A stretch of DNA of 64,000 bases from Tubulanus polymorphus (Eukaryota; Animalia; Nemertea), in the NCBI RefSeq assembly GCF_964204645.1, contig NC_134027.1, forward strand, positions 4,124,485-4,188,484, read 5' to 3'. A program made the position numbers and the translations under genes. Of this stretch, positions 43,801 through 46,800 are shown piece by piece. Position 1 is the stretch's first letter; every line of letters starts with the position of its first letter. The notes beneath the pieces are model-generated. The model saw nothing but the letters and a program-made list of their open reading frames with translations. It searched no databases and was not told the origin of the DNA.

Positions 43801-46800
43801 GAAGATGTGCTGGTAGAATACGGTGCTGATATACACGCTATCGACAGTGGCAGTGGATTCCCTACGAAGGAAACGCAACATAACTTTGAAGAGGATGTTT
43901 CTGTGAGTATTATTTATTCGTCACTGTTACGAATCTGATTATTTCAGTGGACCATTTTGATTTACTGGCGTTGTTCGTGTATTTGTAGGAATATATCGAC
44001 AGTGGCTGGAATTTGAATAATTTACCTGTGGAAGAAAAATCTATTCTTCATCACATAAATGCCAATATATCCGGCATGAAGGTGAGTATACAATGAAAAT
44101 TCGATGATACATACATGTATCGCTTTCCTTTCGAATAGAAACTGTCAAAGCTTCTACTATTAAAGGTAAAAGCCATATTTTTATAACTCGAATCAATGAA
44201 TCCCTTGCGACTGGTTGAGATGGAGAAGAGGTTGGTGGAATTACTGATGTAAATGTTTTGTAGGTCCCCTGGTGTTATGTAGGCATGTGTTTTGCCAGTT
44301 TTTGCTGGCACAATGAGGACCATTGGAGTTACTCAATCAGCTATAATCACTGGTAAGCATAATTTATATTTCTCATCATACGTTTATACTTTGTAGATTC
44401 CCTGGAACTATGTCGGCATGTGTTTTTCGAGTTTTTGCTGGCATAATGAAGATCATTGGAGTTATTCAATCAATTATTTGCACTGGTAAGTATTGAACGC
44501 TGCCCTGTCTGAGCTGCTGTTTTATAATAACACTGAATGCTATATATTACTAAACTGAATTGCTCATTCAGTAAAAAAGAACTTTTGTCTACGATCTGGG
44601 CTGTTTATTGATCCATATCTGTAACTGGGTTAATTTATGTTTTTTCACTGAATTAGTAATTGGAGTTCAACGACAGCAGGCTGATAGGGCAGTGTTAGAG
44701 AGTAGTAATGGCACACTTCTTCTTTGTGACCCATTTTCCTTATTTTGGGTGCAACCCGGTGTTTGTTTTTTTGTCCTGTCTTGTCCCTCAACTGCGTGTG
44801 GTTTTCTTATAAATGTAAATTCCTGGGTTGGTTTCATTTAGTCGCGAATGATTCTCATCAGTGGCTTGAACAAATTGAACATTGAATTCGTCATGATTAT
44901 GAAACTGATCCCTCGATGATATGAAATATGCACAAAGTCTTTAGCAATGATATATGGCGAATGGGTCACAATGTGTGTGAATAATATAATCTTGCACATA
45001 GCACTTATGATATTACATCCTATGATGGAGATGGAAGGTTACAGGTTTCACTGCTCTTCTAGTAAAAAAATACTATCTGAGCTTTAAAAAGAGACTGCAG
45101 GTAGTGTAGTATTTGATCGATAGTAGATTACCAGTAGTGATAGTGCATTGTGTATTCAAATATGACCAGAAAAGCATGTAACACTCCTGATGATGATTGC
45201 CCTAATTTCTTCTTTCAGCTGTTAGATTGCTTTATTGCAGCCTCTAAATGCAACAATCATTTGTATAAGTTGCTCTCTGCACTTTTCTAATGTAAATATA
45301 TTTTTGATAGGGGTGAGCCTAAAACATGGTACGGCGTACCGGGAGATTGCGCGGTTCAGTTCGAAGAAGCGATGAAGAAAACAGCTCCTGAATTATTTGA
45401 AAACGCTCCTGACTTGCTGCATCATATCACTACGATCATGAATCCCAATATTATCATGGATTATGGTGTGCCTGTGAGTTCACTGAACAATCATTTCCCG
45501 GCAGTTACAGTTTTGAATCGTGTCTGCGAATGTTGTATTTCTTTCAATAGGTCGTAAGAACTGATCAATGCGCCGGTGAATTTGTCGTTACATTCCCGAG
45601 GGCTTACCATGCCGGGTTTAACCAGGGATATAACTTTGCTGAAGCTGTTAATTTCTGTCCAGCTGATTGGGTGAGTCATAGATACTGTTAGAGGCCATCG
45701 CTTGTTATAACCTCGCCTTAAATTACTTTGATTACGGAGCCGCCATCTGAAATTCCGCCAAAAACGTTATTTTTCTGTAAAAATTGCTTTTAGAACGGTG
45801 TTTTTACTTTTACCGAAAATACATTTTGCTTTTAACTGAATGACTTTGTTCGATATTTTTCTAGTTACCAATTGGTCGTAGTTGTATAGATCATTACAGT
45901 GAACTACATCGTCAGTGCGTATTCTCTCACGAGGAACTCATCTGTAAAATGGCTGCTGATCCGGATAGTTTAGATCTAAATCTCGCTGCAGTTACGCACG
46001 CCGATATGTTAGCGATGGTTGACTCGGAGAGAAAACTTCGTAAATCATTATTAGATCGGGTGAGTTGTTATTAAAGTTCTGTATTCTTCGGTAACTTATT
46101 TATACAGCGTCTTCCAGTCGGGGAATTATATTTGTTAATGATCGTTTGTTTACAGGGAACGACTGATGCCGAACGTGAAGCATTCGAACTGTTACCCGAC
46201 GACGAGAGACAATGCGATGTTTGTAAGACTACATGTTTCCTGTCGGCGGTCACGTGTTCTTGTTCTAGTAAGTATCTTGGATCAACCCCTTGAAGTCTTC
46301 GTACAGTATTAATTGAGTTATTTGAGTGATTCATCGATGTTTTGATTTATAGCGAGACTGGTGTGTATAAAACACGTTGAAGAGTTATGTTCGTGTTCGC
46401 CGTCGAATCACTGTCTGAGATATCGATACACGTTAGACGAGTTACCGGCCATGTTACATCGCCTGAAAATACGAGCTGAATCGTATGACAACTGGGCAGC
46501 TAAAGTGAAGTTTGCTCTCGAAGCTACCGGCAATCAGAAATTAGGTAAATATCCTGCAATTCTCTTTTGTCTTAAGGTTTCATGAATAGTAGTGGAAGTG
46601 GTGATAGTAGTACCAGTCTTCGTACTCGTGATGCAGTTCTTGCGATACTAAGTTGAAATTAGTCCATTTTCGATGAGTTATCTCTCTGAGTTGAATCAAC
46701 TCAGAACTGTGAAATTTTCCTCCGTTGTAGAATTGCAAGGTTTGAAAGATCTCATACACGAATCAAAAGAGAAGAAATTTCCCGACAATGAAATATTATC

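Follow-up and report, generated by a model that had tools for sequence, protein, structure and literature searches.

Two apparently mutually exclusive exons encode alternative forms of the iron-binding segment in the KDM5 histone demethylase gene of the nemertean Tubulanus polymorphus

The KDM5 gene of Tubulanus polymorphus carries, in the part encoding its catalytic core, two tandem copies (A and B) of an 89-nt exon, and the evidence assembled here supports a real, expressed and selected mutually exclusive exon pair with parallels in two other phyla. We hold with moderate confidence that A and B are tandem duplicates spliced one or the other into two H3K4 demethylase isoforms, both likely active and predicted to differ in their binding of 2-oxoglutarate (2-OG) or of metabolites that compete with it. 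A functional divergence of isoforms A and B is plausible from their sequences.

The exon pair is located in the window, i.e., the whole stretch of 64,000 nt that was analysed, in which the following features were placed:

37872..52331, plus strand: KDM5/JARID1 H3K4 demethylase gene (start and stop read by eye), with the domain order JmjN, ARID, PHD, JmjC, C5HC2, PLU-1, PHD
43989..44081, plus strand: constitutive upstream exon, whose donor picks the acceptor of A or of B
44264..44352, plus strand: alternative exon A, 89 nt, AG/GT, in frame, joints 44081>44264 and 44352>45311; JmjC strand with the HxE iron ligands and the end SISYNH, in which the 2-OG-binding Asn is replaced by Ser
44353..44396, plus strand: GT-AG spacer intron, 44 nt, likely too short for splicing; no A-B joint listed
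44397..44485, plus strand: alternative exon B, 89 nt, AG/GT, in frame, joints 44081>44397 and 44485>45311; the same strand as in A, with the end SINYLH; the Trp and Tyr of the pocket are separated by an unusual Asn (PWNY)
45311..45473, plus strand: constitutive downstream exon (GEPKTW...), carrying the 2-OG-binding Lys

Both domain architecture and orthology place the host gene in the KDM5/JARID1 family. Named KDM5 proteins (19 compared by tblastn) align along the gene from 37893 to about 51947, and the top homologues are named KDM5A-like; the highest total score among the 19 belongs to the KDM5A-like protein of Lineus longissimus (67.8% identity over the aligned stretches). Exon-like stretches seen by eye on the minus strand at approximately 34700-37350 suggest a second gene, transcribed head-to-head, that lies some 500 bp away from the start of KDM5, and MITE-like elements with terminal or near-perfect inverted repeats are present downstream of KDM5 (53981-54340, 54652-54975 and 55495-55609).

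The first-pass annotation, prepared from the letters of the window alone, had described A and B as tandem paralogous 89-nt exons of the same phase with intact AG/GT sites, and its coordinates proved exact. Both exons are flanked by TTGTAG and GTAAG and start in phase 0, so that A and B are neighbouring paralogues that match in length and phase and have intact splice sites, as is typical of homologous mutually exclusive exons. They differ at 17 of 89 nucleotides. Five codons differ synonymously and five are replaced (V/I, C/N, A/S, S/N and N/L in A/B at exon positions 1, 4, 11, 26 and 28); 12 of the 17 base changes sit in the five replaced codons, and two codons are changed at all three positions. 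The direct repeat formed by the pair (104 nt, 83% identity) is the only long repeat within 43989-45473, and a search for the WHxED motif in six frames of the whole window yielded no third copy besides A and B. The same annotation had also stated that both exons keep the HxE iron ligands, that including both or neither shifts the frame and that the spacer is shorter than the neighbouring introns. Each of these statements held: HNE is read in A and in B; the frame is open from 43989-44081 through either A or B into 45311-45473, and a stop is reached with both exons, with neither or with A, the spacer and B read through; and the spacer of 44 nt is smaller than each of 21 other refined KDM5 junctions (75-1088 nt), a set that includes the 315-nt skip over exon A and leaves aside the poorly conserved ARID-PHD1 linker and the 3' end.

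Six sequencing runs were matched, none of which is recorded as RNA, and the contigs of two of them, X3 (study P1) and X5 (study P2), were examined. We took both as cDNA because they are joined across GT..AG introns and show no depth in the constitutive introns. Run X1 holds all 343 sampled words and may be the source of the window itself, so it was left uncounted. All aligned contigs of X3 and X5 are 99+% alike. Those of X3 contain four GT..AG joints, namely the A pair and the B pair whose junction reads had been proposed as a check on the exon model, so that each exon is seen joined to both flanking exons, A in this one run and with short sides of 28 and 26 letters that are flagged "between: not known". 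These sides are below the 31-letter bridging rule, as expected for the arm of a k = 31 bubble. The upstream contig of X3 (contig 1) stops exactly at 44081, a fork in the assembly graph, and the downstream contig begins at the downstream exon, as a two-armed assembly bubble would leave them. Run X5 provides a single contig through B, with B joints only (depth 9.5) and the exon A stretch without cover. Neither an A-to-B joint nor a joint skipping both exons was present among the records listed for X3 and X5, in contigs that drop rare variants. A 241-nt unspliced X3 contig (depth 6.2) is located at 44860-45100, in the intron behind exon B; its stops in the forward frames and an A-rich run near its end indicate that it probably stems from pre-mRNA or internal priming.

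These contigs bear directly on the suspicion that exon A is a decaying pseudo-exon, a product of splicing noise or an assembly artefact. The absence of exon A from the X5 contigs would fit such an origin, as would the single form of the segment in Lineus, the nearest named relative (4/4 members with the segment). It is, however, largely refuted by the X3 contigs, in which both A joints approach the depth of the B joints (15 versus 20); this also answers the possible objection that exon A might never be used. Moreover, exon A contains no stop and no indel, its splice sites are intact, and its 17 differences from B are skewed to synonymous sites. We therefore regard this reading as extremely improbable. 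Contigs report presence rather than absence and their depth is a poor measure of expression level; with both forms in X3 and only B in X5, they weakly suggest that the A:B ratio likely differs between the samples.

What would keep A and B from being joined to each other is likely the spacer itself. Introns too short for splicing block the joining of neighbouring exons in mutually exclusive pairs governed by steric interference (PMC4165533, PMC5740500, as far as accessible), and a distance of less than 50 nt between donor and branch point has been given as the limit in the accessible part of PMC5740500. Since the whole spacer measures 44 nt, any branch point within it would fall below this distance from the donor; its sequence offers loose branch-point candidates only. 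Double inclusion is thus likely blocked because the spacer is too short for the spliceosome, and the frameshift that follows from an exon length of 3n+2 would back up this steric block. We also considered exclusion by a docker/selector RNA structure and found it unsupported: a pairing scan, run without a shuffle control or covariation from relatives, returned 17 short, unremarkable inverted pairs, the best of those touching exon A spanning 27 nt at 74%.

The exon pair is under purifying selection, as judged from the comparison of its two sequences. By the Nei-Gojobori method, A and B differ by nine synonymous changes in 15.1 sites and eight replacement changes in 71.9 sites (pS 0.60, pN 0.11; Fisher p = 1.3e-4 on rounded counts), and dN/dS is about 0.10, a joint value for the pair that does not assign the constraint to A or B separately. 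The skew towards third-position changes from which selection had been surmised at the outset is thereby confirmed. With respect to age, 5/20 degenerate codons for the same residue differ between A and B. The same measure taken against 63 distinct exons of other species gave a mean fraction of 0.58-0.60, with none as low as 0.25, and saturation under the gene's own codon use would lead one to expect 10.2 differing codons versus the five seen (p 0.014). Because so few codons differ, A and B are younger than the split between the phyla, or else they were partly homogenised later.

The roles of individual residues were read by their spacing from the Fe-binding His against KDM5B and rice JMJ703, and those proposed earlier were borne out by this comparison. 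In KDM5B, His499 and Glu501 bind the metal, Ser507 contacts the C-1 carboxylate of 2-OG, Asn509 and Lys517 bind its C-5 carboxylate, and Phe496 acts as a clamp on the chain. Asn509 occurs in several conformations and, with succinate, makes contact with both carboxylates (PMC5636616, accessible part). His499, Glu501, Ser507, Asn509 and Phe496 correspond to exon positions 16, 18, 24, 26 and 13, respectively. The pocket Trp and Tyr and the Asn have their JMJ703 counterparts in W381, Y383 and N404 (PMC3554631, accessible part), with W381 and Y383 mapping to exon positions 3 and 5. Numbering of N493 and K501 in KDM5A, in the accessible part of PMC6360022, is consistent with that used previously for this DNA. 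The exon A peptide aligns with the human KDM5A chain 5e6h over all 30 residues (E 3e-13). Both exons retain all mapped residues except that at position 26 (His+10), which is Asn in B and Ser in A. As to the Fe triad and the 2-OG residues, HNE and the Ser are present in both exons and the Lys in 45311-45473; the third His is found in exon 45551-45670 and the Tyr in exon 43744-43902 (read from sequence).

Among the 547 of 671 fetched proteins in which the segment is present, a redundant set biased to close matches, position 26 is Asn in 541 and Ser in six, position 28 is Asn in 28, and position 4 is Asn in none; single-copy orthologues differ freely at positions 1, 4, 11 and 28. To regard exon B simply as the canonical copy would be incorrect: at position 4, B has an Asn found in 0/547 homologues, and the Cys of exon A is the usual lophotrochozoan residue. 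Four of the six Ser-26 proteins also have Asn at position 28, as does exon A, which gives a weak hint that Asn-28 may compensate for Ser-26; it is only weak since three of these Ser proteins look closely related. One natural Ser-26 protein (P0392, 1253 aa) retains the Lys and the third His.

Loss of the position-26 Asn raises the question of whether isoform A might be a chromatin binder with little or no catalytic activity, in competition with B via its PHD and ARID domains, an option that the first-pass annotation had put forward as a catalytically damped binder. Arguing for it, the Asn is 99% conserved, and the equivalent mutation abolishes the activity of yeast Rph1 (as cited in the accessible part of PMC3554631). 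However, the KDM5-family test case points the other way, as the JMJ703 variant N404A retained activity on me1, me2 and me3 in an overexpression assay (PMC3554631 Table 1, accessible part). Furthermore, the iron ligands and the other residues for 2-OG and methyl-lysine are retained at a dN/dS of about 0.1, which would be needless in a dead enzyme, natural Ser variants exist, and the Asn-28 of exon A occurs naturally in 28/547 proteins. The damped-binder option is weakened accordingly, and we consider it very unlikely. Given that JMJ703 N404A works and that the other mapped residues are retained, isoform A is expected to be active; by this analogy both isoforms are likely active, isoform A with altered binding of the cofactor or of inhibitors.

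In the mechanism that we favour, the donor at 44081 is spliced to one of the two acceptors, and whichever exon is taken is linked to 45311, as the spliced contigs show. The short spacer would block double inclusion, and a message with both exons or neither, which the stops show to be out of frame, would presumably decay. In sequence, both products retain the metal ligands His and Glu, the Ser for the C-1 carboxylate, the Phe of the clamp, and the Trp and Tyr of the pocket. Isoform A lacks the Asn amide that in KDM5B contacts succinate and the C-5 carboxylate of 2-OG; its Km for 2-OG would be shifted, or else its response to succinate, fumarate or 2-HG. Isoform B carries a polar residue within the strand of the methyl-lysine pocket, possibly with an effect of its own. 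The proposal of the first-pass annotation that the isoforms differ in their affinity for 2-OG or O2, or in the methyl states they prefer, stands as a prediction.

Alternative forms of the same segment are found in two other phyla. The chiton Liolophura sinensis has isoforms X1 and X2 (XP_064606539.1 and XP_064606540.1; 1452 aa each) with three differences, all in residues 462-491, and the brachiopod Lingula anatina has isoforms X1 and X2 (XP_013414673.1 and XP_013414674.1; 1366 aa each) with six, all in residues 477-506. These are RefSeq predicted proteins with consecutive accessions, known here from the protein records alone, and the simplest reading is that each pair comes from mutually exclusive exons. 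Each pair combines an HNED..YLH form with an H(T/I)ED..YMH form; the pairs vary at His+1 (N/T and N/I) and His+12 (L/M) and keep the Asn in all forms, and there is hence no single biochemical switch common to the pairs. Lingula X1 is two residues away from exon A. Taken together with the spliced contigs and the selection on the pair, these same-segment isoforms support the mutually exclusive use that had been claimed for A and B.

The duplication is patchy, since a single form is found in most protein clusters and metagenome loci. We inspected 30 protein clusters, with at most 15 listed members each and at least two members with the segment in every cluster, and no second form was present among the members listed in 27 of them; these comprise other molluscs, Lineus, siboglinid annelids, arthropods, echinoderms, amphioxus, coral and one unnamed cluster. 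An apparent two-form case in Nematostella was rejected as a single V/I change between assemblies, and equal-length isoforms of Haliotis and Mya were rejected as segment swaps because they differ elsewhere. The Haliotis isoforms (P0464/P0201, P0463/P0460 and P0467/P0466) diverge by a short insertion at about residue 273-279, just before PHD1, so that by their sequences a further site of alternative splicing lies close to a reader domain. When 1.84 billion representatives were searched with the exon A peptide, the best identity was 87%, with no exact A-type protein among the best 150 of the 960 matches; three two-stretch matches were not tandem exon pairs. A metagenome scan with the pattern PWCYVGMCF, which cannot pick up, as the first match, an exon lacking Cys at position 4, found 87 loci, 85 of them with the whole exon, and a second exon copy in none of these 85 (best second-copy DNA score 31 versus 112 for the window control). 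Most of the loci have AG/GT around the same 89 nt, so that the exon borders are conserved, and a few are without the upstream intron; among the 34 that reach from the upstream to the downstream exon, two have neither intron.

Either the duplication arose several times at one exon, or it is ancient, was mostly lost and has been homogenised in this gene. Exon duplication recurs convergently in orthologous genes elsewhere (PMC9741552, accessible part). Distances of 1-7 per 30 residues among the segments of the pairs from the three phyla are neutral towards a single ancestral pair, which they neither establish nor exclude. Most of the metagenome loci (L002-L087) come from annelid-like host DNA, in which about three KDM5 sequence types recur with different versions of this exon (FAWHTED, FCWHTED..VNFMH and FAWHIED); these are likely gene paralogues, i.e., a diversification by gene rather than exon duplication. 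Single-form orthologues of bivalves and annelids (P0016/P0156, P0074, P0192, P0196, P0022 and P0567) are split in a patchy manner between HNED..YLH and H(I/T)ED..YMH, a split that could stem from an ancestral pair of which lineages lost different members, or from mere toggling between the two types.

It may also be that A and B are true mutually exclusive exons whose isoforms are biochemically near-identical, a pair that is harmless with a 44-nt spacer and in which each copy must work when used. The lack of a clear loss in JMJ703 N404A (PMC3554631, accessible part) is compatible with this, and so are the free variation of four of the five replaced positions in single-copy orthologues and the sufficiency of one exon in most lineages examined; purifying selection would be expected here as well. 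Against it, each copy has a family-rare residue (Ser-26 in A, Asn-4 in B), the base changes are concentrated in replaced codons, two of them fully changed, and two versions of this exon appear to be present in each of three phyla. We judge near-identity to be a real but doubtful possibility and prefer two likely active isoforms that bind 2-OG or competing metabolites differently.

Succinate builds up in oxygen-starved marine invertebrates, and KDM5 couples chromatin to oxygen and to metabolites of the TCA cycle. A bolder extension, which we offer tentatively and consider unlikely in its full form, is that the iron-binding KDM5 exon is a recurrent duplication target in lophotrochozoans and that its regulated splicing determines how sensitive H3K4me3 erasure is to metabolism; isoform A, without the Asn that grips 2-OG and succinate, would respond differently to 2-OG, oxygen and succinate. 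Few parts of the family are as conserved as the active-site strand of KDM5, and three phyla appear to have two spliced versions of it. Natural, selection-filtered variants of the active site in an otherwise identical protein offer a direct probe of the conserved Asn and its neighbours, and the pair lets one ask about 2-OG affinity, about inhibitor sensitivity and about splicing as a means to retune an epigenetic eraser. Should the isoforms prove equivalent, the pair would still document cleanly, and with RNA support, that an exon at one site was duplicated either repeatedly or long ago.

The splicing class is known, and KDM5 as its target is new within the literature searched. We found no report of mutually exclusive exons in KDM5 in the accessible texts, which agrees with the earlier impression that the event had not been described; subscription journals, bioRxiv supplements and large invertebrate tables of such exons lie outside this search and might list it. 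Neither a survey of annelid chromatin enzymes (PMC12153100) nor a review on demethylases (PMC13632499) mentions it in the accessible parts. Automatic RefSeq annotation has already captured the KDM5 segment swap in two species, without comment. In domain order and catalytic residues the Tubulanus protein resembles the KDM5/JARID1/lid H3K4me3/2 demethylases; the vertebrate and arthropod KDM5 records fetched have one form of the segment, and vertebrates diversify by four genes. The short spacer is shared with mutually exclusive exons of the steric type (alpha-tropomyosin; C. elegans egl-15, let-2 and bet-2), but five steric clusters of C. elegans combine 3n exons with spacers of less than 40 nt, whereas the exons described here are 3n+2 and 44 nt apart. 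Among enzymes, the exon switches of PKM1/2 and ketohexokinase A/C alter the response to a ligand, and the mutually exclusive exons 4a/4b of OGDH are reported to change its Ca2+ sensitivity. These are likewise duplicated exclusive exons bearing on ligand response, found, however, in metabolic enzymes with measured kinetics, in contrast to a chromatin eraser known here from its sequence. Homologous mutually exclusive exons have been catalogued in human, with 236 events (PMC8373072, PMC9741552, accessible parts); KDM, JMJD and JARID have no entry in the supplementary table of this catalogue, in which the positive controls PKM, FGFR2 and OGDH were found, and the words "KDM" and "demethylase" are absent from the main text of PMC9741552. 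The pair in the Tubulanus KDM5 gene is like the human tandem duplicated exon substitutions in that equal-length paralogous exons, one per transcript, would fine-tune one region of a protein, and it is unlike the human catalogue in that the exon exchanged here carries two of the three metal ligands.
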